A DNA stretch of 28,114 nucleotides from the IMG/VR virus record IMGVR_UViG_3300005805_000359, positions 1 to 28,114 of that record, one strand, 5' to 3'. Positions 1,240 to 24,106 of the stretch are shown in pieces; the first letter of the stretch is position 1, and the number at the start of each line of letters is the position of its first letter. Source of the stretch: a virus. Taxonomy: Duplodnaviria; Caudoviricetes. The position numbers and the translations under genes were made by a program. The notes under the pieces are model-generated. The model was not told the DNA's origin. It searched no databases and saw only the letters and a program-made list of their open reading frames with translations.

Positions 1240-3378
1240 TTATCGCGCCAACAAGCCCTCGATGAGCGTCGGGTTCTGCCGCTCACGCTCTCCCACAGCC
1301 GCAGCAAACGGTGACGTAGGCAGGAACCGCGTCAAGTCGCCAGCGGTCTTGCGCTGCGCGGCATCAGCTGCGGATTGCAGGGTTCGTGACGCGGACGAAC
1401 CGGCCAGCATCCTCTGGGCTGCGGCCTGCTGCACCTGCTGCTTCAGCGCGTCTAGGCTTGGCTGCACGAGCGTACCGATGCCCGGCACGACAGAACCCTT
1501 CTGCATTAGGTTAAACAGTGCCGCGCCCGTGCCTGATCGGTTAATGAGAGGCACGCCACCAGACACCGGCTCCTTGAATAAGTTCTGGGATACACGCGAG
1601 ATCGTAAAAAGCATCCCCTTCTCCTCGGGCGTGAACAACTCGTCGACCATGTTGTTCTTGTTGAGCGCCTTCAGAGCATTGTTGAAGTTAGCCTGAGAGA
1701 AGCCCTCACCCATTGGCGCAGCCTTGTCCAAGAGATGCCGCACCGTAGCGCCTCGGATATCTTCCCACGCCTGCGCACCCTTCTGCGCCATCTCTGGGCT
1801 TACGTCCGTCCGCGTCAGCAAGCCCTTGAGCTTGACGACGTCGTCGACCTTGCCGCGCAGGACGTACTTGCCGAAGAAGTCTTCCGGCGCAATCTTGCCA
1901 GATACGACATCGGAGACAGGTTCAAACTCACGCGCCCTCTTCGCTGACAACTCAGCTCCGGCACGGAATTTCTGTATAGCTTCCGACCCAGCATCGCCAA
2001 CGGCGTCGGCTTGGTCAAGCATGAACGTGTCAAGCTCGCGCTTGATTTTTCCGAGCGCTAGAGCAGTACTGGGATCGCCGTCCTGTATTCTCGCATTGAG
2101 TAGCTCGCGCATTTTTGCGGCTTCCCTGATGCTAAAAGCTTTTTTTGGTTCAGCACCGGCAAAATCTCCAAGCCGTTGCAGTACCGGACCCGGTATCTTG
2201 TCGCTAAAGTCCCTAACCGTTTCAGAAATACGCGCCTCATACGACGAGAACGGAAGTACGTCATCCGCGCCGGTTGACCCTCTCGCTGCATTAAACGCAT
2301 CATCAATGGGCTTGCCAAGCTCGGCGTACATACCGGTTTTCATCTTGCGTTCACCGATGGCCCCGATAGCCGAACGACCGGCGGCGATTGGCGTATCAGC
2401 CTCCCCGACGATCATCCTCTCAAGCGCCGAACGTACTTGCTCAGGCTGCTGCCTGAAGCGGGTGAGCAAATCCTCACCCACGCCAGCGATGCCAGCCGTA
2501 TTCCGTTCTGTCGCATACTGACGCGGGTCACGCGTTGCTTGGCCCATAGTCGGCTCAACGCCGAGCGTCCTGTAGTCGCGCATACGGAGCAGCGCGGCAG
2601 GATCAAGTTGGCCAGTGACGGAGAGCTGCTGGCGTGCGTCCTGCAATAGGTTCTGCTGCATCTGTGCGGTCATGCGCGAGAAGTCGACCTCAGGCGCTGC
2701 GGCCTGTAGCCCGGTGATCAGGTCTTGCGTGATCTTGCTGGTGGGCGTGAGGACTGACGCGGCATCTCGCAGCCCAGCGCGGCCTACCTGCCCCAGTGCT
2801 GTAGCGCCGACTACTGCGGTTCTCGGTATCTCTGGGATAACTGCGCCAAGACCAGCGCCGATCAGTCCCTGCGCCGCCTTCTCAAGCCCCGTGCCGGACG
2901 GCGCAAACTGTGACACCCCAGCCAGACCGCCAGACGCGACACCGGAGAGCACACGCGGGATGATCGACGACTGACCGCCGGGTATAAACATGAGCGGTGC
3001 CGTTACCGCCGTCGAACCTAGAGCGCGGTTGAAGTCAAACGAAGCCGTATTCTGGGCCGTCCCCTTGTATCCCGTGTATGGCTTGCCTGCCGCCACCCGA
3101 CGAGCTTCGTAGTCGGCGATCTCTTTGTTGACGTCTGTTGTGTACGCCTGAGCCGCATTCGGATCAGTCGCCATGAGGTACATCTGCTTCAAGCCCTGAC
3201 CGACATCGAGAGCGCCACGCTTCAACCCCTCCATAGTCGTCGGTGCCGGGCCAAGGTTAGCTGAAGCCCCAAGTGCTGCCCTGAGCCGAACCACAGCCGC
3301 AGCGGCTTCCTTATCCCCAGCATCGGCTTTCGCTTGCGCGTTCTTCAGCGCCTGATTCATCTGATCAATGGTTGCCAT
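1240..3378 (-). CDS. Large DNA-ejection/internal virion protein (712 aa)
   Basis: Last gene of the tail/ejection cluster; Ala/Gly-rich hydrophobic segment near the N-terminus, helical body, NRSGT motif near the C-terminus; ends IEGLLAR. Confidence 0.65.
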   Translation of the reverse strand: MATIDQMNQALKNAQAKADAGDKEAAAAVVRLRAALGASANLGPAPTTMEGLKRGALDVGQGLKQMYLMATDPNAAQAYTTDVNKEIADYEARRVAAGKPYTGYKGTAQNTASFDFNRALGSTAVTAPLMFIPGGQSSIIPRVLSGVASGGLAGVSQFAPSGTGLEKAAQGLIGAGLGAVIPEIPRTAVVGATALGQVGRAGLRDAASVLTPTSKITQDLITGLQAAAPEVDFSRMTAQMQQNLLQDARQQLSVTGQLDPAALLRMRDYRTLGVEPTMGQATRDPRQYATERNTAGIAGVGEDLLTRFRQQPEQVRSALERMIVGEADTPIAAGRSAIGAIGERKMKTGMYAELGKPIDDAFNAARGSTGADDVLPFSSYEARISETVRDFSDKIPGPVLQRLGDFAGAEPKKAFSIREAAKMRELLNARIQDGDPSTALALGKIKRELDTFMLDQADAVGDAGSEAIQKFRAGAELSAKRAREFEPVSDVVSGKIAPEDFFGKYVLRGKVDDVVKLKGLLTRTDVSPEMAQKGAQAWEDIRGATVRHLLDKAAPMGEGFSQANFNNALKALNKNNMVDELFTPEEKGMLFTISRVSQNLFKEPVSGGVPLINRSGTGAALFNLMQKGSVVPGIGTLVQPSLDALKQQVQQAAAQRMLAGSSASRTLQSAADAAQRKTAGDLTRFLPTSPFAAAVGERERQNPTLIEGLLAR

Positions 3379-3387
3379 GCTGTCACC

Positions 3388-4767
3388 TTATTGGTTGAGG
3401 TATTTATTTACGTCGTCTGTAATTTCATCGACGGTTGGTGGTGCGTTGGTAGTCGAACTCTTACCTGAAGGCTTCTCTAAACGATCCAAGTAGGCTTTCG
3501 TTTCCGGTGAGATCAGCGGCATCTTTTTGAGTTTGCTTATCTCCTTAAACGCATCCTGACGGCTCAATTCGCCTGTGTAAACTCTTTCCGCAATCTGGCC
3601 ATACAGCATATTCATCTGGGCTTTGTTGCGCATAATTTGAAGCACAAGCCTATTACCTTCTGGGGTGTTCATGAGTTTTGGCAACGACTTCAACATACCA
3701 GCGTACTCAATATCAGACGTCGATCCTGAACCCTCAACTCTTAATGTCGGAGCGACCCTATTGATTATGGAAGTCAATGCTGTACCGGCATCAGACGTAA
3801 ACGGGAACATCTCAGCTATCGCGCCCTGTAGTGGGCCTTGTGGCCCCAACCCGATAAGCTCCTCCATTACCGCGAAGTCCTGCATAGCAGACGCAGCTAT
3901 ATTCCCAGCGCCATATATGTCATCTAGTCTTTTGGCTTGAAGTTTGTCCGATTCCTTATCCCCCATGTTTACAGTCGTGCCGCCAGCCGTAGACTGGCTG
4001 TATTCCGCAAAGCTCATTGGCGTTTCGCCAGCAGCTTGAGCGTCCGCGACATAGAACTTGTATTCTTCAATCTTAGACGTTTGCTTTACCGGCTCTTGAG
4101 TAATCTTCTTCGCTGCCTCGTAATACTTATTTGCGTTTTCTATATCCCCCGATGCAGCAAATATGTCCCCCGCAGCATTCAATCGCTGCACCTGCGTTGC
4201 GGGATTTTGTGGTTGCCCGACAGCCGCAGCCGCGTCCTGAGTTGGTCCACCGAAAGCACTAAGAGCCTGCGGCTGCGTCAGAGGTCCATTAGAGGCCATC
4301 ATTTCGCGTACTTGTTTAGCCGCAGGTGTCTCCGTAGCCGCAGCGATAGCCTTATTAGCGGCAATCGTCTGCAACTGTGTTGGCGTAAGGTTTTTGATCA
4401 CGTCAGCCGTCGTGCCAAGTTCTCTTGCAACACCTTCTGGGTCACGCTGAACACGTTCAGCAAACGCCCTCGTCTGCTGCATCTCGCCCATCTTCTGCTC
4501 GTTCTCCGCACCGAGCAGGCGACGCTGTGCCGCGTTGTAGATGTCCGTCTGCGCTCCACCAAATGCCGGGCCGAGCTGACCGAGCAACTGAGCACGCTGC
4601 GATCCGCTCATCGGCTGACCGGCAGCCAAGAGCAGCCCGGACACGTTGCCGAGAGTGTTCAGCGCAGCCTGACGCACGTCGCCCCTAGAGACGCCGTAGC
4701 GCTCGTCGATTGCGTTCGGGTCTGCGTACTCGCCGCCGCCAGTGAAGAAGTCGAGAAGCCCTACCAT
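3388..4767 (-). CDS. DNA-ejection/internal virion protein (459 aa)
   Basis: Position in the ejection cluster; Gln/Ala-rich helical sequence, GSGSTSDIE motif; begins MVGLLDFF; AAGGAGA RBS. Confidence 0.65.
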   Translation of the reverse strand: MVGLLDFFTGGGEYADPNAIDERYGVSRGDVRQAALNTLGNVSGLLLAAGQPMSGSQRAQLLGQLGPAFGGAQTDIYNAAQRRLLGAENEQKMGEMQQTRAFAERVQRDPEGVARELGTTADVIKNLTPTQLQTIAANKAIAAATETPAAKQVREMMASNGPLTQPQALSAFGGPTQDAAAAVGQPQNPATQVQRLNAAGDIFAASGDIENANKYYEAAKKITQEPVKQTSKIEEYKFYVADAQAAGETPMSFAEYSQSTAGGTTVNMGDKESDKLQAKRLDDIYGAGNIAASAMQDFAVMEELIGLGPQGPLQGAIAEMFPFTSDAGTALTSIINRVAPTLRVEGSGSTSDIEYAGMLKSLPKLMNTPEGNRLVLQIMRNKAQMNMLYGQIAERVYTGELSRQDAFKEISKLKKMPLISPETKAYLDRLEKPSGKSSTTNAPPTVDEITDDVNKYLNQ

Positions 4768-4778
4768 GTCGTGTCTCC

Positions 4779-5582
4779 TTAAAGCAGTCCGCGAGGGTAT
4801 TGTAGCACCGGAGGCTTACGCCTCTGGAAATCGAATTGCCGCAGCATCTCTACCGGGTCTTGCTGCGCCGACAGCGCCGCGAGCTGCGCGAACGACTTAC
4901 CGGCGTCCGCAAGGCGACCCTGCTGCACCTTAGACGCAGCCTGCTGCTCCGGCGTCATGGGCACGGGTGCGTCGATAGACCCCGGCGCAATCTTGTTGCC
5001 GATCAGGCGCATCGTCGTGGCGAGGTCTTGCGAGTAGACAGGTGCCGGTTGCGTTGCGGCTGTAGCGTTTGGCTGTGCTGACGCCATCATGGTCTGCGGT
5101 ATTACAGCGCGAGACGGGATCGACTGCTGGTAATACTCCGGCTTCTCGCCTGCGCTTGCATACGGCGACGCTGGGGCTGCGGCTTGGTATGCCGAGGTTG
5201 CCTTACTCGGGTTATCCTTCAACCCTGTCCATGTCGGTGAAAGCGCACCAAGTATGCGTGACGATAGACCCTCAGCCTGAAGGTCTGCCACCAAGTCCCT
5301 GTTTGTCCGCGCCTTGTAATCCTGCACCGCCAAGCGAGCGGCCATCTCGTCCTGCGCCTCTGGCGTGAACGAACCACCACCGAGCCTGTCGTATGTCGTA
5401 GCCGTGATCTGATACTTACCAGCAGCCGATGACGGGCCTGCTGGGCCGGGTTCGAATATGCGTGGGTGCTGGCCATAGCCCGAGAACTCAGCGCCGCCCT
5501 TCGGCGTGTAGCGCACGTTGTAGCGGCCACCGCTCTCCGGTGCTGCGATAGCTTCGAGAAGGCGCTTGAGTATTGGGTCCAT
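4779..5582 (-). CDS. Virion-associated muralytic enzyme (lambda-R/GH104-like lysozyme fold) with a low-complexity C-terminal tail
   Basis: IAAPESGGRYN (candidate catalytic Glu), SSAAGKYQI and FTPEAQD motifs; Pro/Gln/Ala-rich C-terminal half ending RGLL. Confidence 0.75.
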   Translation of the reverse strand: MDPILKRLLEAIAAPESGGRYNVRYTPKGGAEFSGYGQHPRIFEPGPAGPSSAAGKYQITATTYDRLGGGSFTPEAQDEMAARLAVQDYKARTNRDLVADLQAEGLSSRILGALSPTWTGLKDNPSKATSAYQAAAPASPYASAGEKPEYYQQSIPSRAVIPQTMMASAQPNATAATQPAPVYSQDLATTMRLIGNKIAPGSIDAPVPMTPEQQAASKVQQGRLADAGKSFAQLAALSAQQDPVEMLRQFDFQRRKPPVLQYPRGLL

Positions 5583-6115
5583 CAGACACCACCACGGTAG
5601 TAGCGCAGGAAGTCCTCATAGCTGATCGGTGCCGTGAGAGGCGTCTGCGACTGCATTGACGGGCCGAGGATACCTGAAGGCATAGACGGCTGCGGTGCCG
5701 CGAGGAGCGACTGCTGCACCATATTGCCGTAGTCCATCTGCGTCGCGGCAGACTGCGGCCCCGCGGTATTCGCGTAGTCCAGCGGGATTGCGTTGTAGAA
5801 TGGCATATAGCTTGTCGCCGGTGTCGTAGGAACATACTGCGACACGTCGAACTCTTTCATCAGTTCGTCGATGGTCTTCGGCTTTGCTTTACCGCCACCC
5901 TGACGGCCCCTGCGCTGTGCTGGGGCGTCACCATTACCGCCACCGCCATACTGCTGCCGGTATTCGGATTGGCTCAAGTTCCCGTACGGGCCATATGTGT
6001 TTTGGTTATTCCCTGAACCAGTATAGCCACCCATGTCTGAGCCGCCGATATAATCGGCATTATTACCACCAGAACTGCCGCCAAACAGTGACCCAATGTC
6101 GCTGAGTATACTCAT
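5582..6115 (-). CDS. Gly/Asn/Gln-rich low-complexity putative internal virion protein (177 aa)
   Basis: Start reassigned to ATG 6115 (MSILSDIGSLFGG) with an AAGGAG RBS; lies within the ejection cluster. Confidence 0.6.
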   Translation of the reverse strand: MSILSDIGSLFGGSSGGNNADYIGGSDMGGYTGSGNNQNTYGPYGNLSQSEYRQQYGGGGNGDAPAQRRGRQGGGKAKPKTIDELMKEFDVSQYVPTTPATSYMPFYNAIPLDYANTAGPQSAATQMDYGNMVQQSLLAAPQPSMPSGILGPSMQSQTPLTAPISYEDFLRYYRGGV

Positions 6116-6125
6116 TTCGCTCTCC

Positions 6126-7241
6126 TTATGCCGCAAACGCACGGCGCATTGGCCCGAACCCGAGGTTGACAGCCTTGCGACCGCCGATGTCTTTTACCTG
6201 ATCGGGAAATTTCTTCTCGATGTCCTGCGCCATAGGCCCGACGACCTTCGGGTAGGACTTCGGGTCACCCTTGTAGCGGTATGCGTACAGGTCGAGTCCC
6301 GTCTCTTTGTCTTTGCCCATCTTGGTGATGTCGGTCTTCATGCCCTCATCGGACGCTCCAAATAACATCGACCCAATATTAGCTAACCCAGTCCCGGCTG
6401 AACCAAGCCCACCGAGGAATGACAGCAATGAATTGCCACCGCCAGACGTTGACTGCGTCGTCGTACCGATATTTGGCACGGAAGACGTAGCCCCGATGCG
6501 CAAGTTGAGCATATCAATCGGGTAGTTCCGCTCAGCTTGGTATCTCTGATACGCGTCATTCAGAAGCGCCTGCTGCTGCGCCTGCTGCGACTTGCCAATG
6601 TTCTCCAGAGCCGCAGCGTCAGCGTAGAGTGCGCGTTGACCGGCACCGGCAATGTCGGACAACTGACCGCCAGCCCGAAGCCGAAGCTCCTGTCCTTGAA
6701 GTGCGCGGTTCATGTCGGACTGCATCAAGCCAGCCGCCGTATCGTAACCCTGAGAGCGTATCTTTGCGCTGAGATCGCCTGCCTGCCGCGCAGTCTCGAC
6801 GTTCGACAGTGCTTCAGCGATGCCCTGACGAGAACCGCCAAATGCACCGGCTGTTCGAGCACTCTGGGCGATGCCCTGCTGCGACCTGAGCCGCTGCGCT
6901 TCCAGACCGCCCAGAGCGTTGGCCTCGACGTTCTGGAGGTACGGGTTCATGTACGCCCCGATATCGCCTCCCGTGAACGTGCCGGGCTGGTATCCCGCGA
7001 CCGAAGCCGTAGTCCCGAGAGATGCGCCATACGCTGGCTGATACGCGCCAATGTTCTCGCGTGTCATGTTGTACGACGCGATCTGGTCTGGCGACAGACC
7101 GGCGACGGTCTGGCCACCGTACTGCTCGAACGGTCGCTTGGCGATTGCGTCCGCGATTGCGATGTTCTCACGCGTCGGCTGCTCCAGCCACTTCGGGAGT
7201 TCCTGCCTCGACGTCGTCACTTGAGGACTACCACCACCCAT
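6126..7241 (-). CDS. DNA-ejection (pilot-like) protein with a C-terminal peptidase S74-like intramolecular chaperone domain
   Basis: MGGGS start, YMNPY and GAFGGSRQ motifs, Gly-rich hydrophobic stretch, then SDEGMKTDI...YRYK...GPMAQDIE...VN. Confidence 0.75.
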   Translation of the reverse strand: MGGGSPQVTTSRQELPKWLEQPTRENIAIADAIAKRPFEQYGGQTVAGLSPDQIASYNMTRENIGAYQPAYGASLGTTASVAGYQPGTFTGGDIGAYMNPYLQNVEANALGGLEAQRLRSQQGIAQSARTAGAFGGSRQGIAEALSNVETARQAGDLSAKIRSQGYDTAAGLMQSDMNRALQGQELRLRAGGQLSDIAGAGQRALYADAAALENIGKSQQAQQQALLNDAYQRYQAERNYPIDMLNLRIGATSSVPNIGTTTQSTSGGGNSLLSFLGGLGSAGTGLANIGSMLFGASDEGMKTDITKMGKDKETGLDLYAYRYKGDPKSYPKVVGPMAQDIEKKFPDQVKDIGGRKAVNLGFGPMRRAFAA

Positions 7242-7246
7242 GTCTC

Positions 7247-7609
7247 TTACTCCATCTCAAACGTCATAACGGTCTGCACCGTCTTCCAACCCGCCTCCTG
7301 AAGAGGCTTAACCAATCCGTGTCTCACGTATGCCCGACCGTAGTCGCACCCGTGAGCCTTTGCCAGATCGAGCAGCTCAGGGCGCAGAGCCAAGACGCTG
7401 TCGAGATCACCGGCGCACAGAAACACGTCGATCACGCGCCTGCGTGGATATTCACCAATCTGGGTGACGATGACGGCACCGTCGTTCCAGATCGCCTGCA
7501 TCGTACCATCCCGCAGGCACTGGATCACGTCATCCAGATCGTGCGTCGATCCGCTCTTAACTAGGCCGCGCTCCATAAGCGCGATGATCTTGTCTTCACC
7601 GAATCCCAA
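7247..7609 (-). CDS. GNAT-fold-like virion assembly protein
   Basis: VIVTQIGEYP...FLCAGDL...AKAHGCD...RHG pattern; lies between the tail hub and ejection genes as in podoviruses. Start codon uncertain. Confidence 0.55.
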   Translation of the reverse strand: MGFGEDKIIALMERGLVKSGSTHDLDDVIQCLRDGTMQAIWNDGAVIVTQIGEYPRRRVIDVFLCAGDLDSVLALRPELLDLAKAHGCDYGRAYVRHGLVKPLQEAGWKTVQTVMTFEME

Positions 7610-7811
7610 GCGGCACCGCCGTTGACGTCAGCACCCCGGCGTTGCTGACTGTGATCCGATAAACAGAGCCATCCGGTGACTGCAACATGATACCACCAAC
7701 TGACTGCGTAGGCGAGATGGCCTCGCCCATGGCCTGCTTGATGCTCTCAAACGCTGAAGCCATGTTCGATGCGTTGTACTTCTCCGGTGGCGTGGGAATG
7801 TTGAACTTCAT
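7596..7811 (-). CDS. Small tail-associated protein (71 aa)
   Basis: LQSPDGSVYRITVSNAGVL motif; translationally coupled to the tail hub gene. Confidence 0.6.
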   Translation of the reverse strand: MKFNIPTPPEKYNASNMASAFESIKQAMGEAISPTQSVGGIMLQSPDGSVYRITVSNAGVLTSTAVPLGIR

Positions 7812-9763: not shown

Positions 9764-10287
9764 TATGCAACCCCTGATCGAGCAAGTTCTGATGCCGCTA
9801 CTTGTACCTCATTTACGCGTCTGGTCCAACCCTTGCCGAACGTGTCGAACGTCGATAGGCGCTGGAGGAAGTCGAGGCGTGCGTTCGAGATCAGATTGAC
9901 GATATGGTCCGGCGAGTGCTGGGCAATGGCCGCGAGCGTACCCTTGCCGATCATACCGTCAGCGGTCGCGCCAACGGCTTGCTGCAACATCTTGGACGCC
10001 CGGCCAACGCCTGAGTTCACCGCGAGATCGTAGACGGCGTAGTCGACGCCATCAGGCAGATCGTCGCCCTTGACCTTGTCCCAGTACTGACGCTTGTAGA
10101 AGGGCTTGACGATCTCCGGCGTCAGCGCTCGCATCTCTGCCTCGCCTACCGGCTTCTCGATATAGGCTTCCCATGCCTTCTTCGTTACACCGAGGTTCGT
10201 CATGCCCCCGGGGTCTTTGGGGTGATTCACGAATTTCCCCTCATGCTTCAGCACTGCGGCGAACGCCTTCTCCCAATTCGCAATCAT
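9763..10287 (-). CDS. Endolysin, glycoside hydrolase family 108 with C-terminal peptidoglycan-binding region
   Basis: LKHEGKFVNHPKDPGGMTNLGVT, YWD, DLAVNSG, LQQAVGATADGMIG and FGKGWTRR motifs. The usual EGGY motif reads EGKF, with Glu retained. Confidence 0.9.
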   Translation of the reverse strand: MIANWEKAFAAVLKHEGKFVNHPKDPGGMTNLGVTKKAWEAYIEKPVGEAEMRALTPEIVKPFYKRQYWDKVKGDDLPDGVDYAVYDLAVNSGVGRASKMLQQAVGATADGMIGKGTLAAIAQHSPDHIVNLISNARLDFLQRLSTFDTFGKGWTRRVNEVQVAASELARSGVA

Positions 10288-10820: not shown

Positions 10821-10829
10821 CCCGATCTC

Positions 10830-11300: not shown

Positions 11301-11480
11301 TCACGAACCCCTATGCCAATCTCTTATGGCAAGAACAATGCGGATCACGACAAGCACCAAACCACCGACGGCAATGGCAAACCCGATCCAACCCTGCAAC
11401 TCCATCATCCATAGCGGCATCGTAATAGCACCCGTCGCTATGGTTGAATCAATCGCAAGTTTGGTTTCGTGGATGGCCAT
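11301..11480 (-). CDS. Small membrane protein, holin/antiholin-like (59 aa)
   Basis: Start reassigned to ATG 11480; hydrophobic helix WIGFAIAVGGLVLVVIRIVLAI. Confidence 0.6.
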   Translation of the reverse strand: MAIHETKLAIDSTIATGAITMPLWMMELQGWIGFAIAVGGLVLVVIRIVLAIRDWHRGS

Positions 11481-11481
11481 A

Positions 11482-14464: not shown

Positions 14465-14465
14465 A

Positions 14466-14858: not shown

Positions 14859-14867
14859 GGTAGCTCC

Positions 14868-15488: not shown

Positions 15489-15811
15489 CCGTTCATCCAG
15501 TGCGTCTTGTATGGTGCGGCTTCTTCAGACTTCAGCCAGCGGCGCATTGCGATTTTATCGCGCAGGATACCGCGCTGCAAAAGGTCAAGGTGTACGGCCA
15601 TCGGGATGCGAGCAACTCGCACCATGTCGCCTGATTTCGTAGTGCGTGAGACGTCGTTGCGGATTGTGATGTTCTCTTCAGCAATCGCGTCAATCTGCGT
15701 CTCGTTCGTGAAGTGCATCTTGCCGTCGGTGTCGACGTGCATCTTAGACATTTCGCCTGAGAATGAATCGTAACCGAGCGTGAAAACTCCGGGGGCAAAC
15801 TCTTCGGCCAT
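15485..15811 (-). CDS. Hypothetical protein between major capsid and adaptor (108 aa)
   Basis: AGGAAA RBS, VARIP...W motif; coupled to the adaptor gene. Confidence 0.7.
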   Translation of the reverse strand: MAEEFAPGVFTLGYDSFSGEMSKMHVDTDGKMHFTNETQIDAIAEENITIRNDVSRTTKSGDMVRVARIPMAVHLDLLQRGILRDKIAMRRWLKSEEAAPYKTHWMNG

Positions 15812-15832
15812 CTGTGTTTCCTATGTGTGAGG

Positions 15833-15854
15833 GGGGCCGGTGTTACCCGGCCCC
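15833..15854 (-). terminator. GC-rich hairpin after the major capsid gene (weak terminator or mRNA-stabilising stem)
   Basis: GGGGCCGG-gtaaca-CCGGCCCC perfect 8-bp stem 7 nt after the capsid stop codon; no U-tract follows. Confidence 0.55.
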
Positions 15855-15861
15855 GATCATA

Positions 15862-16842
15862 TTAAGCAGATGGCGTGAGGTTCGCAATCGCGGCAGCGGA
15901 CAGCTCGTTCTTCACGCGCAGGCCGTACTCCACGATGAGTTCCTTCTTCGTCGAATCGCCAACGGCGGCGATGTCGAGGGTTTCGTATGGGCGGAGGTAC
16001 GAGATAGATGCGTACTCTGGGTCCATGACGATAGCAAAGCGCTCGTCGAAGAAGCGGTTAGGCACAATCGCCACCTGACCGAAGTCCGAGAGGTAGATGT
16101 CAGCGGTCGCAACGATCTTCAGCGGTGACGCCGAGTCGTTGTACATACGCTGCTGCGCGAGGCCAGCGAAGCCCGAGGCTACGGTCTTGTTGTATGGACC
16201 GGTCATCAGGATCGACGGATCACCGCCCTGCGTCCAGACGCTCTGGATCGCGGTCTTCAACATCGTCTCGGTGAAGGCGACGTCAGTCGCAGTCGAGAGA
16301 GATGTCCAAGCGGCGTTTGGATAGCCGTTTGGCGAGGACGACAGCGTAGGTGCTACTGCGCTGTTGGCGATGCTGTTGGTGCGGAGCCACGCAGGCATAC
16401 CGGCAGTGGTACGCGCAGTTGACGTGTTACCAGCAGAAGCGGCTTGGTTCGAGCAGATGATCTTCTCGACGTCGCGCTTCAACTCCTTCGCCTTCTTAGC
16501 CGTTTCGTAGGCCAGGAGAGTGCGCATACCGGCCATGTTGACCGACTGTGCGGTGCCGGAGACGGCCACGATCTTCGTGGAAATCTGCGTGTAGTTCGCG
16601 ACGCGGTTGGTTGCGACGAAGTCAGCGTCACCGGCGGTTGCGCCTTCGACTGCTGCGTTCGAGCCGTCTGCGGCTGCGAGCTGGTCTGTTTGCCACTCGA
16701 AATATGTGTTGTCAGCCGTGTCACGACCGATATTCGAGGTCATCGGGGTGCTGGTTGGGCTGATGTCGTAGATGATGTTCGAGAGGTCTTCGCGCATCGA
16801 ATTAACGGCGTTGTACGTCTTTGCGTTGGTAACTGAAGCCAT
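15862..16842 (-). CDS. Major capsid protein (DUF5309/SU10-like family, 326 aa)
   Basis: REDLSNIIYDISPTSTP, FEWQTDQL, NYTQI, ELKRDVE, YLSDFG and EYGL motifs; follows the scaffold gene. Confidence 0.88.
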   Translation of the reverse strand: MASVTNAKTYNAVNSMREDLSNIIYDISPTSTPMTSNIGRDTADNTYFEWQTDQLAAADGSNAAVEGATAGDADFVATNRVANYTQISTKIVAVSGTAQSVNMAGMRTLLAYETAKKAKELKRDVEKIICSNQAASAGNTSTARTTAGMPAWLRTNSIANSAVAPTLSSSPNGYPNAAWTSLSTATDVAFTETMLKTAIQSVWTQGGDPSILMTGPYNKTVASGFAGLAQQRMYNDSASPLKIVATADIYLSDFGQVAIVPNRFFDERFAIVMDPEYASISYLRPYETLDIAAVGDSTKKELIVEYGLRVKNELSAAAIANLTPSA

Positions 16843-16844
16843 GA

Positions 16845-17870
16845 CTATTTTCTCCTGTCGAGAAGTCCAAAAAGTTTAGCAGCGTCATCGACGCTACCGG
16901 TTCTACTGAGACGATCCTTTGCACGAGAGACTTCCGTCGCTGCACGTGGAGTGTTGGCGATAGTGCCTGAACGCATTGGCTTCGGCCCGGCAGACTGGTC
17001 TGGCTTGGGACGATTGGCCATTATGGCGTCGTAGCGTCTCGCTTTATCAAGCACCAAGATCGCCCGTGGGTCATATGCGGCTCCGAGTTCCTCGTCCGTA
17101 TAGCCAACCTTCTGGCCATAGTCGCGAAGCCTGCTCCTTGCCTCGTTCCACTTCTCTGCGTCTTTCCACTCCGGCACCTTGTTGAACAGGTATTCCCTAC
17201 CACGCTCGACCATGTGCTGAAGCTGCGCCTGCTCCTGCTGAGAGGCCATGTGAGCCATACGTTCGCGCTCGGCTCCTGTCGCAGCCACGCGCTCCTTATA
17301 GTCTCGCCACTGCTTCTCGACGATTGGGAAGTTGAGCGGGTCATCACGATGCAGTTGTTCCCAGTTGGGTTCCTGCGGCGCGAATTGCTGTAGCTGTTGG
17401 TGCAGCGCATTAATGAGCTGCCCGTACTGCTGCCTCTCCACTTCCACTTGCTGGCGCTCCTGCGCGAAGGTCTGTACCTCCTGCTTTAGCGCCTGCGTCT
17501 TCCTCGTGTAATCGGAGTTCCGTTGGTAGCCTTCGAGAGCCTCCTTCAGCGTGATGTTCTCAGTCTTGCCGTTAATCTTAACGGTGACGAGTGCATCAAG
17601 CGGAAGCGGTTCTGTATCCGCGCCTTCGGTATCCTCGGAGTACTCCGGCTCTTCACCTTCCGGGGCAGCGTCATACGCTGGGTCGGCCCCATCCGATTCA
17701 GTCTCTTCGCCTTCGTACCCCGACGCCTCGGCCTCTGGAGCCTCGGCAGGGGCAATAGCTCTCTTGGGTGCTTCGGGTTGGCCATCTCTGGCTCCCAGTA
17801 GGGCATCCATTTTCGCTGCTGCTTCTGCAACACCGAGTTCCCCGCCTTGGGATTGTTCGGCTGATACCAT
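16845..17870 (-). CDS. Capsid scaffolding protein (341 aa)
   Basis: Acidic disordered N-terminus, VKINGK..ITLKE..GYQR..DYTRKTQ motif, Gln-rich coiled coil; directly upstream of the capsid gene. Confidence 0.82.
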   Translation of the reverse strand: MVSAEQSQGGELGVAEAAAKMDALLGARDGQPEAPKRAIAPAEAPEAEASGYEGEETESDGADPAYDAAPEGEEPEYSEDTEGADTEPLPLDALVTVKINGKTENITLKEALEGYQRNSDYTRKTQALKQEVQTFAQERQQVEVERQQYGQLINALHQQLQQFAPQEPNWEQLHRDDPLNFPIVEKQWRDYKERVAATGAERERMAHMASQQEQAQLQHMVERGREYLFNKVPEWKDAEKWNEARSRLRDYGQKVGYTDEELGAAYDPRAILVLDKARRYDAIMANRPKPDQSAGPKPMRSGTIANTPRAATEVSRAKDRLSRTGSVDDAAKLFGLLDRRK

Positions 17871-17883
17871 CTTAAATACTCCC

Positions 17884-18141
17884 TTATGGGCCGCGTTTCA
17901 AGCGGCGGTTGAAAGCAGTCACAGTCGGCTCTGCGGCCAGCGCAGTTAGCTCGTTTCTGAACTCGCCTATGGCACGCACCATCCTGTACGCATCATCCCT
18001 ATCGTCGCCCCGATCCGGGTGCGACATCTTCCATTTCTCGATGTACGACTGCTCCATGCGACGCAGCACTTCATCCGTCGCCTTGTCTCTCGCAAGGGAC
18101 GTGGCGGCGCGGTAGATGTCTTCGAGTTCGTGCGGGGTCAT
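17884..18141 (-). CDS. Small helical head-module protein (85 aa)
   Basis: Lies between portal and scaffold; ATGA-coupled; codon usage resembles the core genes. Confidence 0.7.
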   Translation of the reverse strand: MTPHELEDIYRAATSLARDKATDEVLRRMEQSYIEKWKMSHPDRGDDRDDAYRMVRAIGEFRNELTALAAEPTVTAFNRRLKRGP

Positions 18142-19406
18142 CGAGTTTCCTGTGCCTGAGCTTGGTCTTGAGCGCCCAATAAACCATATCCTGCCGCTCC
18201 AACTGCGGGGATTAAGCCATACTTGCGCAGTATTTCGATCATTGCGTCATCAAAAACAACGTAATTACTTTTTCCCTCACCCCGTGAGCGTGACATGGCG
18301 TCAAGATATTTTATTCCGGGAACCTCGTTTTTCAAAAGATATTCGCTGGCTTTCCTAGCAGCAGAATTGCGATACTGTGACCGCATTGCGGCATCTGCAT
18401 CTACAGGCCAATCAATAGCGCCCATTTTGTTTTTCAAATTCTCATAAATTTCTGCTCCTGTCGCAGACATAGGCAACGCGCCTTTAGGAGTAGGAAGTTT
18501 AGCTGGATTGTATTCCGAAGAACCTTCAAGCGCTGCTAAAAGGTTATCTGTGTCTTTGGCTTCCGCTGAACGATACGCATCTATAGTTTCAGGGGACCAT
18601 CCGCTAAGTTTTTTTATCACATCAGGTTGATCTCGAAGCGGTTTATCCCAATCTAAAAATTTTTCTGGGTTCGCTCTAATATTGACTTCATACATACTGC
18701 CTTCTTTAGACTTACGGTATACATCAATTAGATCAGCAAGTGCTTCTGGAGGATATTTCCTTGCTTCAATACTTGCATTTTGAAGCTGCTTTGCGGCTTG
18801 CAATGGTGGCACATTGCCACTTGCTTGACGCCTAATTTCAGTCATTGCCTCACGAGTCATAGGCATACCGCGTTGATTGACTTCATACTCAAGATCAATT
18901 TGATTTCTGTTAGGGGCTAAGGTGTCTCGATAATATTTAGCCGTTGGCTCGGCTTCAGCAAGATATAACCCATGACCGAACGCCTGTACGCCTTCTCCTG
19001 ACCCTATTTTCGATAAATCAAATTTGTCAAAGCTATACGGCGATCCATGATATGCCCGTATAACTTCTGGGGCTATTTCTGAAACTGCTTCGACTGCCTT
19101 CTTTGCCATAGTACGAGGCAAAGCAGCGGCTCCAAGAGTAGCCATATCAAGAATACCACTGCCATACCCTAACGCGGCATTGCCAGCACCAATAGCGGCT
19201 TCACCGTAGTTTCCGGTCTGAGCATTACGAGCTGCCTCAGTTAAATCCCGTTGGCCGGTAACAAAACCAGACCCCGGAAGATATTCGGCTGGTGATCCCA
19301 ATATACCACTTACCGTCGGCATATTTTCGCGAAACTGCTTCGCACCACGGGCAAGCATATAGCCTGACGTCTCAAGATATTTTTTGAGGTCTTCCATGCT
19401 TGCCAT
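18138..19406 (-). CDS. Putative ADP-ribosyltransferase-fold effector (ART-PolyVal-like), low GC (422 aa)
   Basis: AYHGSP..FDKFD...GSGEG.QAFGHGLYLAE...AKYY, MYEVNI, GIKY and NYVVFDD motifs after a Gly/Ala-rich N-terminal region. Confidence 0.65.
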   Translation of the reverse strand: MASMEDLKKYLETSGYMLARGAKQFRENMPTVSGILGSPAEYLPGSGFVTGQRDLTEAARNAQTGNYGEAAIGAGNAALGYGSGILDMATLGAAALPRTMAKKAVEAVSEIAPEVIRAYHGSPYSFDKFDLSKIGSGEGVQAFGHGLYLAEAEPTAKYYRDTLAPNRNQIDLEYEVNQRGMPMTREAMTEIRRQASGNVPPLQAAKQLQNASIEARKYPPEALADLIDVYRKSKEGSMYEVNIRANPEKFLDWDKPLRDQPDVIKKLSGWSPETIDAYRSAEAKDTDNLLAALEGSSEYNPAKLPTPKGALPMSATGAEIYENLKNKMGAIDWPVDADAAMRSQYRNSAARKASEYLLKNEVPGIKYLDAMSRSRGEGKSNYVVFDDAMIEILRKYGLIPAVGAAGYGLLGAQDQAQAQETR

Positions 19407-19416
19407 ATCTACACCC

Positions 19417-21684
19417 TCACATCATCTGCGGAGGCATTGGCGGCATCATCTGCGGTGCCGGTGCCTGTTGCGGTATCTGGTTCATATTCAGCATGGCCTG
19501 CTCGCGCTGCGCTTGGAGAGAGAACATCTCCTGTATCTCGGTGCGCTGGCGGTTCACTTCAGCGTTAATCACGGCCATGTTGACCTGTGACCCGTACTTG
19601 GCCTCGATCTCTGCCGCCTTGAGCATCGCGTCTACCATAAGCTGATCGCGCTTGAAGTCCGCGTCTGCCTGCGCCTTCTTCGTCTCCAGCTCCTGCTTCG
19701 CGGCAGCGATCAGGATGTCGGCCTCGATCTGCTTCGCCTGAACCTGAGCCAGCATCTCGGTCGGGTCCATCGGCTTCTGCTGCTGGGACATCTGCTGCAT
19801 ATACGCGTCGACCGCAGCCGGATCGACTTCCTTCACGAACTGTGACGGGTCTTGGAACCCGGACAACTGGATCACCTGCGCGAGCGTATTGCGGTACTGC
19901 TGGAGGTCTACGAGCGGGTTATTCGGGCCGTATTTCTCGATCACTTCCTTCTGCTGCGCGAGTATCTGCATCAGGAATGCCATGCGCTGATCGTCTGAAC
20001 CGCGACCGAGCGCGATGTTGACGACCATGTCCATATTCGCATCCCAACTGCGCGGGTCGATTGGCACGAACTTGTTGCGCAGGCGGATGATCTTTGGCTT
20101 GTCCTGATGCTGCACGACGAGCTTCAGCAAGCCTTGGAAGCAGCGCTTCAACCCGTCAGCGAACAGGCGAGCGATCATCTCGATGCGCTCCTGCGACGAC
20201 GAGAGCTGTGCCTGCACGGCTGACCGTGTGGTTGACTGCAACACGTCACCGTCAAGCCCCTGCGATGCGCGTGAGATGCCCGTGCGCTGCGTCTTCACGT
20301 CGTCTAGGTATGCAAGCACCCCGAGAGCCGGTTGCCCGACGAACGGCGTCGAGAGAGCCTGCACGGCACCCATGGAGCGCATACGGATAACTGCGCCCGT
20401 CTCGTTGTTCATCACGTCGTCCATGTTGACTTGTGATTCGACGACGGCTGTGCGCGGGTGGATCGACTGCGCGAGGCTGTCGAGCGTATTGCGGACAATG
20501 GCAGACTTGATGAGCTGCAAGTCCATCGTCTGATCGGCAATCGACTTGCCAAAAATCGTGTGGGGCGTCGGATCGGGCGACAGCAGCGCGAACGGTGCCT
20601 GCTGCACGATCTCGTCGTGGAGTACGACTGCGCCGTTCCCGACCGTGCAGACCTTGTGCAGCTCGGCGATACCGTCACCGTCCTTGTCGATGCGGATGTA
20701 CGCCTCGACGTAGTAGACCTTGTCCGTGCTCTCGTCAGCGCCCTGCGTAAGACCAAAGAACGACTGGTCTGCCGGGTTGCGTGCGAGCGTCTCCATGTTC
20801 ATCTCGAAGCCGCCAGAGCCTGCGTTCTCCTCGATGACTTCACGCGGGTAGCCCATCGCCACCAGCTCGGATACCGTCGCGAGCTTGCGCCGACCGACGA
20901 TGAGAGCCTCGTCGATTGTCGGTGCCTCGTTGTCGATCAGGAACTGCTCGGGCGGGATGCACTCGACGACATACTTCGGCGTCTTGTTAATGCGACGCAC
21001 GCGCATCGAGATCGTTGGCGGCTCCATGGACATCATCGGGTCCATCGGGATGACGTTGGTCTGCGTCTGCGTCATCGACATATGCTCGACCATCTCGATC
21101 ATCTCGACGCCCGGCTGCGACAAGATAAACGCGACCTCGTCCTGCGACAGGCCGGAGTAGTTGTACTCCTCGACCGTCTCGTCCGTCCGCACGTACCACG
21201 TCAACACGCCTTCCTTCAGGATCAGCGCGTCCTTCATGGCGTCGTGCAGGATGCGGAAGCCGTTATTCTCTTGGCTGAAGATGTAGTCGATGAGGTCCGT
21301 CATCTGCTCGGCGGCTTCGACATCTTCAGCGCCCTTAGGGACGAACTCAAGCGTCTTCGTGCCTCCGACAAAGATGCGCAGAAGGCTCGGCATCATGGCG
21401 AGAACGGTATCGCGCACCTCGGTCATCACGACCTGAGAGCGCCCAGCTTCCTCATTCCCGAACAAATTGCCGAGGTAGTAGTTCATCGCCGTCTCGCGAT
21501 CCGGCGCGATATAGCTGTCGATATAGGTTGCGCAGTCCTCGACCGCCTGCCGAACGCGGTATCGGAAATCTTCCTCGTCCATTGGCTGGTCGGGCGTAGG
21601 TACGAGCATACCGCTGTCGTCGTTCAGGACGCGCTGCGGGATCATCTCTGGATCGTACCCACCGAGTGCTGCTTCGTTAATCAT
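19417..21684 (-). CDS. Portal protein, P22-like, with a Gln/Met/Pro-rich C-terminal extension
   Basis: YYLG..FGNEE.GRSQVV..EVRDTV...PSLLRIF, DAL..K.G, IPPEQFLID and RTG motifs. ATG 21684 is preferred because it avoids overlap with the methyltransferase. Confidence 0.9.
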   Translation of the reverse strand: MINEAALGGYDPEMIPQRVLNDDSGMLVPTPDQPMDEEDFRYRVRQAVEDCATYIDSYIAPDRETAMNYYLGNLFGNEEAGRSQVVMTEVRDTVLAMMPSLLRIFVGGTKTLEFVPKGAEDVEAAEQMTDLIDYIFSQENNGFRILHDAMKDALILKEGVLTWYVRTDETVEEYNYSGLSQDEVAFILSQPGVEMIEMVEHMSMTQTQTNVIPMDPMMSMEPPTISMRVRRINKTPKYVVECIPPEQFLIDNEAPTIDEALIVGRRKLATVSELVAMGYPREVIEENAGSGGFEMNMETLARNPADQSFFGLTQGADESTDKVYYVEAYIRIDKDGDGIAELHKVCTVGNGAVVLHDEIVQQAPFALLSPDPTPHTIFGKSIADQTMDLQLIKSAIVRNTLDSLAQSIHPRTAVVESQVNMDDVMNNETGAVIRMRSMGAVQALSTPFVGQPALGVLAYLDDVKTQRTGISRASQGLDGDVLQSTTRSAVQAQLSSSQERIEMIARLFADGLKRCFQGLLKLVVQHQDKPKIIRLRNKFVPIDPRSWDANMDMVVNIALGRGSDDQRMAFLMQILAQQKEVIEKYGPNNPLVDLQQYRNTLAQVIQLSGFQDPSQFVKEVDPAAVDAYMQQMSQQQKPMDPTEMLAQVQAKQIEADILIAAAKQELETKKAQADADFKRDQLMVDAMLKAAEIEAKYGSQVNMAVINAEVNRQRTEIQEMFSLQAQREQAMLNMNQIPQQAPAPQMMPPMPPQMM

Positions 21685-21688
21685 GTGC

Positions 21689-22240
21689 CTATACCTTTCG
21701 GACGCGCCACCATGACCAGCCACGTTCTGTGCCGATCTCTGGTTTTGGGAATACTTCTCTCACAGCTTGCCCCACGCCGTCCATAGGGTAGTCGTCGCCA
21801 CCGATCACGCCACCGCGCTTCACCTTCGGGAGCCACGCATTAATATCCGCCAGAACAGAGGCGTAGTCGTGACCGGCGTCGATCCAGACGAAGTCGCAGC
21901 TCTCGTCGGCGAACTTCTCGGCTGCGGCTGGGCTTTCGCCCCGGTGGATGACGAGGTTCAGACCGTCGATGCGCTTCATGTTAGCGCGAAATATCTTCGC
22001 GACGTTCTTGATCTCGGGATCGGCGAGGTGGACGTCGTCGCTGCCCTTCCAGTGGTCGACACAGTTGAACTCGATAGCCTTGCCGGAGTTGACGATCTCG
22101 ACGCCCATAAAGGATGCGGATCGCCCCTTCCAGCAGCCAAGTTCGACGAACACGGCACCGTCGCGAGCTGACGCAACGGCTTCAAGGTACGGCTTTGAGA
22201 ACTGGAACCAGCCCTCGATCTCCTCGTAGAAGTGTTTCAC
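21689..22240 (-). CDS. Class I SAM-dependent methyltransferase (Methyltransf_24-like)
   Basis: VELGCWKGRS (motif I), CVDHW, DFVWIDAGHDY and GGVIGGDDY. Confidence 0.88.
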   Translation of the reverse strand: MKHFYEEIEGWFQFSKPYLEAVASARDGAVFVELGCWKGRSASFMGVEIVNSGKAIEFNCVDHWKGSDDVHLADPEIKNVAKIFRANMKRIDGLNLVIHRGESPAAAEKFADESCDFVWIDAGHDYASVLADINAWLPKVKRGGVIGGDDYPMDGVGQAVREVFPKPEIGTERGWSWWRVRKV

Positions 22241-22413
22241 TTGCGCTTCATCTTTCCGGCTTCGGACATCGCGATTGCGATTGCCTGCTTGCGGCTCTTG
22301 GCCATCGGTGCCTTGGCCGGGCCTTTCGGGTTCACGCCTGCCTTCAGCGTACCCTTCTTGTATTCGCCCATCACCTTGCCGATCTTGGCCTGCGCCTTGC
22401 TCATCTTCTTCAT
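22237..22413 (-). CDS. Small Lys-rich protein (58 aa, DUF6496-like)
   Basis: Hand-translated, absent from the ORF track: MKKMSKAQAKIGKVMGEYKKGTLKAG...KSRKQAIAIAMSEAGKMKRK; 4-nt overlaps with both neighbours. Confidence 0.75.
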   Translation of the reverse strand: MKKMSKAQAKIGKVMGEYKKGTLKAGVNPKGPAKAPMAKSRKQAIAIAMSEAGKMKRK

Positions 22414-23093
22414 GCTGCTGCCCCTTCGATCTCGGCCATTACCATGCTGTCCATGTCACGCTCGGCCTCTGCGTGCTCATGCGTAAACTCGAATACGCCT
22501 ATGTGTCGCACTTCTGCTGACACGGCATTGTCGATCATAACCTTGAGCCCGTGCCTCTGCGCCAGCTTGCAGAAGTAGATATCCTCGCCCACAAACGCCT
22601 CGCTCTTTGGCGCGTACCCGATCTGGAACCACGGCTGCGGGAGAGCCTTGAACACTTGCGCCTTGATCAGCATGACGCCCATGCCGACGGCGTCTACCTC
22701 TTGCAGGACTTGCGTTGCCTCGTCCCAGTAGATGCACTCCAGCTTCTCGAAGTTCGAGAACGCGACCGTCTTCGTCGGCATCCTGCGCGTCGCATAGTTC
22801 GCGGCGACGATGTCGAGATCGTTCGCCATCAGGCGCTGCACGACGTTCTTCGGGAAGCGCATATCGCTGTCGAGGAAGAGTATCCAGTCAGCGCCTGCCT
22901 TTAGCGCGATCTTGACGAGCTTCTGGCGCTGGTCAGCGATTAGCGTTCCGCTGACCATGTGTATGTTGAACTTGGAGCCGACGGGTGCTGCGCCGTACCA
23001 GTGCGCGGACAGCGTCGCGAGATCGTGAGCGAACCCGGCGTCTACGTGGTCGCGTGCCGGTATGCAGATGGATAAGTTGATGGGCTTGGTCAT
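22410..23093 (-). CDS. Glycosyltransferase, GT-A fold (family 2-like)
   Basis: ICIPARD, R..LV..AL, WILFLDSD (DxD), GMGVMLI..VF, PWF and GEDIYFC motifs. Confidence 0.82.
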   Translation of the reverse strand: MTKPINLSICIPARDHVDAGFAHDLATLSAHWYGAAPVGSKFNIHMVSGTLIADQRQKLVKIALKAGADWILFLDSDMRFPKNVVQRLMANDLDIVAANYATRRMPTKTVAFSNFEKLECIYWDEATQVLQEVDAVGMGVMLIKAQVFKALPQPWFQIGYAPKSEAFVGEDIYFCKLAQRHGLKVMIDNAVSAEVRHIGVFEFTHEHAEAERDMDSMVMAEIEGAAA

Positions 23094-23101
23094 GGGTTAG
23101 T

Positions 23102-24106
23102 TTAATCCTCTAGATATCTTGCATAGCCAGATTTGATATCGTCTAATAGGCCGGGAATACCTTTGCTCAATAGACTTCTATCAAGCACAAACTCCTCATC
23201 CCATCGTGGCCCCCGTTGCTCCCTTGAATATTCACGCTGCGGCGTGTCTGGCAAATAATGGTCAGATAACCTCACTTCATATTTTTTGTCTGGAGAAACA
23301 AGGTAACGGCTTGAAGCTCTTTTATTTTTGCCTTGTGATGTATGACGAACGCTCCACCCTTCTTGCTTTAACAAGCGCGGGACAGCTTCCATAGTTGCCT
23401 TTTTTGTCTCGTCAAACGCATCCCCCGGGGATATATCTGCAAATCTTTTTATGTAATCTGCTGCATCTGAACGCAATAAGTCAAATCCGGGCATACGCGT
23501 AAATTGTGTAACATCTTTATTTCTTTGAATAGCTTTGTTTAATTCGCTCCATTGAGCGTCTGGCCCTCTATACAGAGGGTCTCTGGATGGCTTGTTCAAG
23601 TAAGCGGCTGTCTGCCTCTGTTTTTGAATATCACGTATCTGGGCTATCAATTCTGGCAAGGCGTCAATTTCTTCAGGTACAGCTCCTCCTTCAAGTGCGT
23701 ACTTTGTTATTGATGCTGGGTTAGTGATGTTAACTCTCTTGGCCACTTGCGAAGCAGCCTTATACGTCTGCGGGGACAGTTGACGGGCGGCGGCTTCTGC
23801 TGCTGTCTCAACGACATTGCCGACCGCCTTCGCCTGCTTCATGCCGGGCACCATTGCCATTGCCGCGCTGCGGTAGTCACCGGCTGCGGCTTGCGTCTGG
23901 GCGTCAAGCAACCCGCCTAACCCAGTGAAGTCGACCAAGCTCATGCCGGTATCGCCCAACCCAGACGAGCCAAGCAAACCTTCAATGGAGCGGCGCTTGT
24001 CAAACGATGGCTGCTCGCCAAGCATCATCTTTGCCAAGCGGTCACGCCACGTCGGCTCATACGGTGATAGTGTTTGGCCAGCGTATGGGTTGTATGGTTC
24101 AGCCAT
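23102..24106 (-). CDS. Mosaic protein with a high-GC N-terminal region and a low-GC C-terminal domain of unknown function (334 aa)
   Basis: N-terminal PTWRDRLA...GLLG...DFT.LGGLL; C-terminal SSRYL...VRLSDH motif; GC shift near 23760. Confidence 0.7.
   Translation of the reverse strand: MAEPYNPYAGQTLSPYEPTWRDRLAKMMLGEQPSFDKRRSIEGLLGSSGLGDTGMSLVDFTGLGGLLDAQTQAAAGDYRSAAMAMVPGMKQAKAVGNVVETAAEAAARQLSPQTYKAASQVAKRVNITNPASITKYALEGGAVPEEIDALPELIAQIRDIQKQRQTAAYLNKPSRDPLYRGPDAQWSELNKAIQRNKDVTQFTRMPGFDLLRSDAADYIKRFADISPGDAFDETKKATMEAVPRLLKQEGWSVRHTSQGKNKRASSRYLVSPDKKYEVRLSDHYLPDTPQREYSREQRGPRWDEEFVLDRSLLSKGIPGLLDDIKSGYARYLED

Follow-up and report, generated by a model that had tools for sequence, protein, structure and literature searches.

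A short G-L-L motif near the ends of ejection-cluster, accessory and scaffold proteins in LUZ24/phiM5-type podoviruses: a candidate capsid-loading tag

The subject of this analysis is a Gly-Leu/Ile-Leu tripeptide (G[LI]L) found near the ends of otherwise unrelated proteins encoded by a viral stretch of 28,114 nucleotides (nt), positions 1 to 28,114 of IMG/VR record IMGVR_UViG_3300005805_000359, referred to as the window. The closest described systems are the capsid-targeting sequence (CTS) of phage T4, the ejection proteins of P22, the SaPI1 protein CpmB and the effectors carried by polyvalent proteins and MuF toxins.

The T4 CTS of IPI-IPIII is a short peptide common to unrelated internal head proteins, for which a cargo-swapping role has been proposed, and it is a 10-residue N-terminal propeptide that is cleaved (PMC9026906), whereas the G-L-L motif spans 3-4 residues, is mostly C-terminal, being densest in the last 10 residues of proteins, and also occurs as internal repeats. 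P22 has the same head type and gene order, and its internal proteins gp7, gp20 and gp16 are recruited during procapsid assembly; each of these ejection proteins has a site of its own, N-terminal parts suffice for gp7 and gp20, and the available portions of the two papers name no motif shared by them (PMC8402733, PMC12005531). CpmB is a non-scaffold protein that reuses the scaffold terminal motif of phage 80alpha, the RIIK helix-and-hook, to bind the inner surface of the coat; it belongs to a parasite, redirects capsid size and has a homologous tail of 16 residues (PMC5644958). In the window, by contrast, the proteins concerned are the phage's own cargo, the motif is minimal and coat binding is putative.

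Polyvalent proteins, MuF toxins and portal-adjacent ADP-ribosyltransferases (ARTs) include ART-PolyVal and PBECR5 domains whose genes lie next to those for portals and for which packaging and injection are predicted; they are MuF or portal fusions or large multidomain chains (PMC5512222, PMC9503650), and the string 'GLL' has 0 occurrences in PMC5512222. Payloads of the window phage differ in being stand-alone proteins with short tagged tails and a leader of ~90 amino acids (aa). Neither a MuF or portal fusion nor a chain with several effector domains was found: Pfam and PHROG scans of the window proteins gave no match to a MuF domain and no effector domain in the 334-aa accessory protein, and a single weak ART-PolyVal match in the 422-aa one. 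Encapsulin cargo-loading peptides are short and Gly/Leu-rich, stand at either terminus and, without being cleaved, direct unrelated cargo into a shell of HK97 fold; encapsulins are cellular compartments rather than virions, and their loading-peptide consensus is longer than GLL. No description of a G-L-L cargo motif was found in the literature searched, whose coverage left out most subscription papers, and the motif is apparently widespread in this phage group yet undescribed.

Enrichment and order specificity across related loci

Profile searches (Pfam and PHROG) place on the minus strand of the window the late operon of a LUZ24/phiM5-type podovirus, which comprises terminase, portal, scaffold, capsid, adaptor, fibre and lysis genes, a nozzle gene and an ejection cluster led by a gp7-like gene. 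An earlier note on this DNA had proposed that G[LI]L serves as a procapsid-loading signal and that its enrichment at protein ends should separate internal-type from external proteins. This separation holds across 284 related loci, taken from IMG/VR scans and six GenBank phages. Genes were called with a purpose-made open reading frame caller, whose N-termini are less certain than its C-termini, and were classed by position and dereplicated at 60% identity, the position-defined classes keeping only contiguous genes of at least 100 aa; expected counts were composition-matched, and permuted tripeptides served as further controls.

The motif lies within 20 residues of an end in 47/139 ejection-cluster proteins encoded after the gp7-like gene (expected 4.5), in 13/27 post-portal accessory proteins (expected 1.1), in 2/17 pre-portal accessory proteins (expected 0.4), in 7/31 gp7-like proteins (expected 1.1) and in 6/32 dereplicated scaffolds (expected 0.35), against 2/301 core proteins (expected 6.5); it is terminal in 4/204 products of the other genes between capsid and ejection cluster, of tail and lysis type (expected 5.5). 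Removing the close relatives of the window left 39/129 ejection-cluster, 11/25 post-portal, 2/284 core and 4/203 other tail- or lysis-region proteins. Counted as single-linkage families, 23/52 unrelated cargo families contain a tagged member, compared with 4/66 control families (Fisher p=1e-6). The claim that the motif is shared by unrelated proteins is thereby borne out, since it recurs in non-homologous families and survives gene swaps; as to conservation in homologues, the enrichment persists across families and swaps and the motif itself is not universal.

An unbiased count over the final 20 residues ranks GLL first among tripeptides in the ejection class (34 occurrences vs 3.3 expected); it falls outside the top twelve in the pooled accessory class, which is dominated by one large family. 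The order of the residues matters: GLL stands at 3.1 and 4.1 times expectation in the two cargo classes, compared with 0.7-1.2 for LGL and 0.6-0.75 for ALL, and core proteins are depleted in GLL (0.59 of expected); SLL is also high in the post-portal class (4.3). The density of the motif peaks at 25 per 1000 over the final 10 residues, compared with 7 over the first 10 and 1.5 mid-protein, and the residue that follows is G, D or A in 46/62 terminal sites, compared with 23/87 control sites. Thirty-six different codon strings encode 56 motif sites, and selection therefore acts on the peptide. Two other origins were considered and rejected, a DNA repeat on account of the varied codons and a composition artefact on account of the composition-matched counts and the tripeptide-order test.

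Many tags are the protein's last 3-5 residues (27 of the C-terminal sites) and others stand at residues 2-3. Tagging at both ends is seen in phage MJing1 and in locus L563, and an 803-aa pre-portal gene of a metagenome locus starts MAGLL and ends PRGLL. One post-portal protein (L262) has tandem GLLN repeats and contains GLL at six spaced sites, most of them within a repeated unit. It belongs to a set of post-portal genes in L247-L284 (for example L262:6287, L256:7362, L241:6418) encoding low-complexity proteins of 450-960 aa with several GLL copies and a common C-terminal end of Y-x-P-L-I type; the two searched had no Pfam match.

A reverse scan for genes starting MAG[LF]LD directly after a TAA stop returned ~240 stretches, compared with 59 for a permuted pattern, with plausible gene starts in 80/120 and 2/59, respectively. 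The pattern permits Phe and one unrelated MAGFLD family inflates these counts, so that only MAGLLD starts were interpreted. Among 80 loci with full flanks there are 26 of these, 12 of them next to genes that hidden Markov models assign to the head, tail or ejection functions of this group; the remainder comprises ~6 that look like ejection-cluster genes by inspection, 6 in siphovirus tail regions and 2 without assignment. The motif is real, order-specific, selected at the protein level and restricted to certain gene classes, it is placed at either end or repeated, and it is retained when protein bodies are swapped.

Tagged genes and exchangeable slots in the window

All peptides that the earlier note had quoted are on the minus strand, as are all features given below in the form 1240..3378. 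The description of them as standing at or near a terminus is right for some sites, and several others are not strictly terminal. Terminal sites occur in the last gene of the ejection cluster, in gp16-like position (1240..3378), whose 712-aa product had no match in Pfam and PHROG searches and ends IEGLLAR (motif at 1249-1257); in the 459-aa protein in gp20-like position (3388..4767), which starts MVGLLDF (4753-4761) and has a second GLL at residue 44; in a 267-aa transglycosylase/lysozyme-like protein (4779..5582; PF06737, weak; phrog_90), which ends PRGLL (4782-4790); in the scaffold, which ends FGLLDRRK (16860-16868); and in the YGLLG of the 422-aa protein (18177-18185). The SGILG of the low-complexity 177-aa ejection-cluster protein (5582..6115; motif at 5666-5674), whose gene start at 6115 is preceded by a strong ribosome-binding site, lies 29 residues before the C-terminus. 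Similarly, SGILG and SGILD of the 422-aa protein lie at residues 34 and 84, and IEGLLG and GGLLD of the 334-aa protein at residues 43 and 65; the three sites of the latter are at 23972-23980, 23906-23914 and 23144-23152.

With a cutoff of 25 residues from an end, 6/38 hand-picked window genes carry G[LI]L (shuffle mean 1.2, p=0.0008, a post hoc test). The termini of terminase, capsid, adaptor, fibre and lysis proteins are free of it, as had been stated. Internal copies also occur in other proteins of the window, namely the portal (residue 531), the nozzle (469), the fibre (73) and a 108-aa protein (81).

The ejection cluster has the expected layout, in which a gp7-like gene comes after the nozzle gene and some small ones and precedes large genes that have no annotation; it is syntenic with phiM5 gp27-31. 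Its anchor, which defines the cluster, is the 371-aa gp7-like DNA ejection protein (6126..7241; phrog_4287, E=4e-40), which has a C-terminal peptidase S74 domain (PF13884) and G[LI]L nowhere in its sequence. In close relatives the 712-aa gene is replaced by genes for proteins of 566 and 657 aa that have no BLAST match to it and that carry GLL 15 and 12 residues from the end. Homologues of the 459-aa protein start MGILDF, MAGLLDF, MVGLMDF or MAGFFDY, and several close relatives retain only the first ~300 nt of its gene.

Two accessory slots could be delimited exactly in the window, at 18142-19402 and 23099-24113, and both are empty or otherwise filled in relatives with 91-97% identical flanks. 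The first, post-portal slot holds the 422-aa ART-PolyVal-like gene (18138..19406), whose match to PF18760 is weak (E=1.3e-4; 23.2 bits, below the cutoff of 31.2). A conserved 85-aa gene before the scaffold (17884..18141) forms the right border of this cargo slot, and a small gene at the same position, phiGT1 gp6/LUZ24 gp64, has been described (PMC10386132). Most of the 120 listed homologues of the 422-aa protein carry PF18760. With the 8 closest removed, terminal G[LI]L is present in 49/112 homologues selected by the ART domain (expected 4.9); 20/112 carry it in unrelated N-termini, and at the C-terminus some of the signal comes from a KYGLL domain end shared by homology.

The second swappable slot holds the 334-aa gene (23102..24106), which consists of a ~90-aa leader (23822..24106), defined by a leader alignment and by DNA matches in close relatives, and a small alpha/beta C-terminal domain. 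Four local examples in close relatives join this GLL leader to four different payloads, two of which end in the same YGLLG tail as the ART-like protein of the window. The leader also moves between the two slots, and related starts (MAELRPYEPTWRDR) are found on ART homologues. After removal of the 3 closest from 43, N-terminal G[LI]L is present in 11/40 homologues of the C-terminal domain (expected 1.6 for either end). That domain (23150-23450) has a conserved R-L-S-D-H motif, 43 homologues and no match in Pfam and fold searches; it might conceivably be nuclease-like. For the whole protein, ESM Atlas gave no usable match and Foldseek none at E<=0.001 from a poor single-sequence model (pLDDT 52). 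The C-terminal PGLLDD of the protein, put forward as a further tag, was discarded as such, as it aligns with the last helix of the domain and is probably structural. Payload domains seen with tags include ART-PolyVal, PBECR5, DUF7178 and methyltransferase.

Of the neighbouring genes, the portal (19417..21723; PF23899), which may be an alternative receptor to the capsid protein, has its sole GLL internally, and the terminase large subunit (25336..26736; Pfam, PHROG) is a motif-free control. The major capsid protein (15862..16842; PF17236; PDB 9ny2, 7z45) is of SU10/Pa223 type and is closest, among cultured phages, to that of phiM5 (49%), followed by the LUZ24/PaP3 group (38-40%); sequence searches with the 422-aa protein and the scaffold returned no matching solved structure. 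Methyltransferase and glycosyltransferase genes between terminase and portal (21689-23093) are kept in relatives and untagged, and the HNH endonuclease and resolvase/invertase genes upstream of the terminase (26723-27870) are 99-100% identical in L003. A Cys-containing 156-aa head-module protein (24575-25045) has no GLL in the window and has GLL at one end in other lineages (L016:4096, L352:4321, L575:3365), a distribution that suggests that it too may be virion-internal.

The motif in cultured phages and in distant lineages

Several cultured phages carry the motif on proteins with evidence of a place in the particle. The phiM5 protein gp28, noted in GenBank as found in the particle proteome, ends PKGLL; its gene is syntenic with that of the window's lysozyme-like protein, and the two have no significant similarity. 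PaP3 ORF16-18 and LUZ24 gp52 and gp53 also end with the motif, the LUZ24 proteins being noted in GenBank as particle proteins, and PaP3 ORF18 is the orthologue of Pa223 gp54, a virion ejection protein (bioRxiv 2025.06.11.659172). In MJing1 two post-portal genes carry the tag at both ends, and three genes of the ejection cluster are tagged as well; the motif is found in Bradyrhizobium ppBeUSDA76-2 and Vibrio BA6 too. In phiGT1 the slot of the 422-aa protein holds its homologue gp5, which starts MAGMFDF, has no G[LI]L and is present in virions, with a modest SC/MW of 0.29 (PMC10386132, Table S3). This supports the slot as a cargo slot and shows that the motif in its strict form can be dispensed with. 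Of the P22 proteins, gp7 ends GLLGSLF, and gp20 and gp16 lack a terminal GLL.

Variants appear on some motif-free ejection proteins (GLFGS, MAGIFDY). In a clade like Ochrobactrum phage OH, ends of RGL[TS]L type replace GLL in 13/15 rows on a quick nozzle tree; the second ejection-cluster gene of L111-L156 and of phage OH itself (L163) ends RGL[TS]L[TM]G. In distant prophages, 4/13 ejection-class proteins are tagged (expected 0.6), and core proteins are at expectation (6/226, expected 6.2).

Bradyrhizobium-type prophages have post-portal genes (L498:4044, L530:4616, L542:5073, L543:6621, L551:6524) that start with a repeated L-V-P-V-[DE]-H-x-P-F; proteins with this leader include P0040 and P0113, and two have WHH/colicin-DNase domains. 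The leader is possibly another lineage's cargo tag. In L104, L108, L148, L161 and L493, a gp20-like protein with an end such as YNPETGELE or GGNPADKNNWE is followed by a gp16-like protein with a start such as IEVELPDG or GPWEDF, and these recurring pairs are possibly paired interfaces.

Candidate docking in the procapsid and alternative roles

The scaffold of the window (16845..17870; phrog_3927) has a C-terminal hook ending DAAKLFGLLDRRK and an N-terminal amphipathic helix at residues 14-26 (17793..17831), located by alignment and in an AlphaFold2 model. A similar amphipathic helix is present at both ends of scaffolds, N-terminally in 31/38 and C-terminally in 35/38 aligned sequences, with the common pattern A-A-x-x-hydrophobic-x-small-L-L; AlphaFold2 models both ends of the scaffold as helical (C-terminal helices 310-324 and 327-340). 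The terminal helices of the window scaffold are near-duplicates (17793-17831 and 16848-16890), and on the N side an acidic disordered linker precedes the core. The scaffold may grip the coat with both ends. The LL is preceded by A, G or S in 27/31 N-terminal helices and by G in 15/35 C-terminal ones, and followed by A, G or D in 26/31 N-terminal helices and by D or a stop in 32/35 C-terminal ones; several scaffolds read EGLLD or EGILA there, resembling the IEGLLAR of the window. In these flanking preferences the cargo motif resembles the last turn of the scaffold terminal helices. The proposed link between scaffold and cargo is plausible, the more so for the similar helices at both scaffold ends, but GLL is not invariant in scaffolds: the dereplicated scaffolds mostly lack it, G[LI]L at either end is found in 16/38 aligned sequences, many of them related, and in MJing1, whose scaffold scan yielded 3 loci only, tagged cargo stands beside a GLL-free scaffold tail.

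We put at about 0.55 the probability that G-L-L-[G/D/A] is a short docking motif that loads cargo into the assembling procapsid. From cultured phages, in which homologues are annotated as particle proteins or were detected by mass spectrometry, we infer that the tagged proteins are internal virion proteins, and because a periplasm-acting lysozyme and a cytoplasm-type ART domain bear the same tag, the step they have in common would be head loading. The coat is likely the docking partner, because the motif resembles the ends of the two amphipathic scaffold helices. The tag would dock proteins inside the assembling procapsid, so that they are enclosed and later ejected. It would do this, in the weakest step of the proposal, by copying the last turn of the scaffold's terminal helices ([A/G/S]-L-L-[A/G/D]), and tagged cargo would occupy spare scaffold-binding pockets of the coat, several copies together providing avidity. 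Loading of the P22 ejection proteins requires the scaffold, whereas the portal is dispensable (PMC8402733), and scaffolds are fewer than coat subunits (PMC12005531); together with the precedent of CpmB, this favours docking in spare coat pockets.

A number of observations weigh against docking by this motif. Ninety-two of the 139 ejection-cluster proteins have no G[LI]L among the 20 residues nearest either end, and it is missing from the ends of phiM5 gp27, gp29 and gp31, of LUZ24 gp50 and gp51, and of the ejection proteins of SU7, Venkman, Lyrsu01 and phiGT1. A ~215-aa methyltransferase-like gene in the post-portal slot is untagged, phiGT1 gp5 is in virions without any G[LI]L, and the 1-154 fragment of P22 gp7 is still packaged (PMC8402733). 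Post-portal genes of distant prophages carry the motif in 8/80 cases compared with ~3 expected, from noisy gene calls. Three residues alone confer little specificity; a hydrophobic residue at -2, as expected of a helix mimic, is weakly enriched (19/40 C-terminal sites vs 31/87); and P22 data indicate the scaffold, not the coat, as docking site (PMC12005531). The loading signal postulated by the earlier note is upheld in its comparative predictions, but the motif is not necessary everywhere, as phiGT1 gp5 and P22 gp7 show. Loading probably proceeds by several routes, of which this motif is one and not an indispensable one, and the ~90-aa leader of the accessory genes may matter as much as the motif.

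A fuller version of this proposal, in which an uncleaved, position-independent and multivalent GLL code imitates the helices at the two ends of the scaffold and occupies spare pockets of the coat while cassette slots swap effectors, is tentative and on the whole doubtful. The same holds for its further details, that the effectors would include ADP-ribosyltransferases, nucleases and methyltransferases, and that RGL[TS]L in the OH-like clade and the V-P-V-D-H-x-P-F leader in Bradyrhizobium prophages would be dialects of the code.

It is unlikely that the motif acts after loading, in positioning at the portal, in threading through the portal and tail channel at ejection or in linking cargo to ejection proteins. 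The tagged proteins do share an ejection step as well, P22 gp7 is packaged without its GLL end (PMC8402733), and in L352 even the terminase and a small head-module protein start with GLL. Pa223 gp54, the PaP3 ORF18 orthologue, wraps the portal, but it is modelled there for residues 174-319 only, which excludes the C-terminus (bioRxiv 2025.06.11.659172). Scaffold, which in P22 is gone before ejection (PMC8402733), nevertheless has similar helix ends, and the six spaced repeats of one protein would match a lattice more readily than a starting point for threading.

A membrane- or host-directed element, such as a short hydrophobic anchor with which to cross or line the host envelope, derived from the Gly-rich C-terminal end of pilot proteins of gp7 type, is a distinctly poor candidate for the motif in general. 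It may be the right explanation for gp7-type ends, which are Gly-rich, hydrophobic and GLL-containing (P22 gp7, LUZ24 gp53, RHph_I1_23, and the 7/31 gp7-like proteins above), but the tails that hold most tags are polar or basic and not long enough for spanning a membrane or inserting into it (RRRGLLD-stop, PRGLL-stop). Moreover, the order specificity and the G/D/A preference argue for a defined pocket, and cargo with differing likely destinations bears the same tag.

That the motif directs proteolysis or degradation, or marks where a host peptidase processes the protein, is highly improbable. The T4 CTS couples targeting to cleavage (PMC9026906) and the host OpdA trims P22 gp7 (PMC8402733), but no prohead protease was matched among the proteins scanned in the window, a partial genome (30 by Pfam, 36 by PHROG), and the motif often forms the last 3-5 residues, leaving nothing to remove, or stands at residues 2-3. 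Chance and composition, that is Gly/Leu-rich disordered tails plus shared ancestry, to which the post hoc window test, the homologous KYGLL end of the ART domain and the probably structural site of the 334-aa protein lend something, are scarcely tenable, being largely refuted by the composition-matched expectations, permuted controls, family counts, codon variety and removal of close relatives, with the reverse scan pointing the same way even though many of its 80 plausible starts belong to the unrelated MAGFLD family.

How podoviruses select proteins for packaging and injection is a question even in P22, and the presence of a three-residue motif in the cultured phages phiM5, LUZ24, PaP3 and MJing1 makes cargo choice testable by point mutants. 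If docking by G-L-L is true, it would provide a small tag with which podovirus capsids could be loaded with proteins, and a sequence rule predicting injected anti-defence effectors among the unannotated genes of an abundant aquatic phage group.

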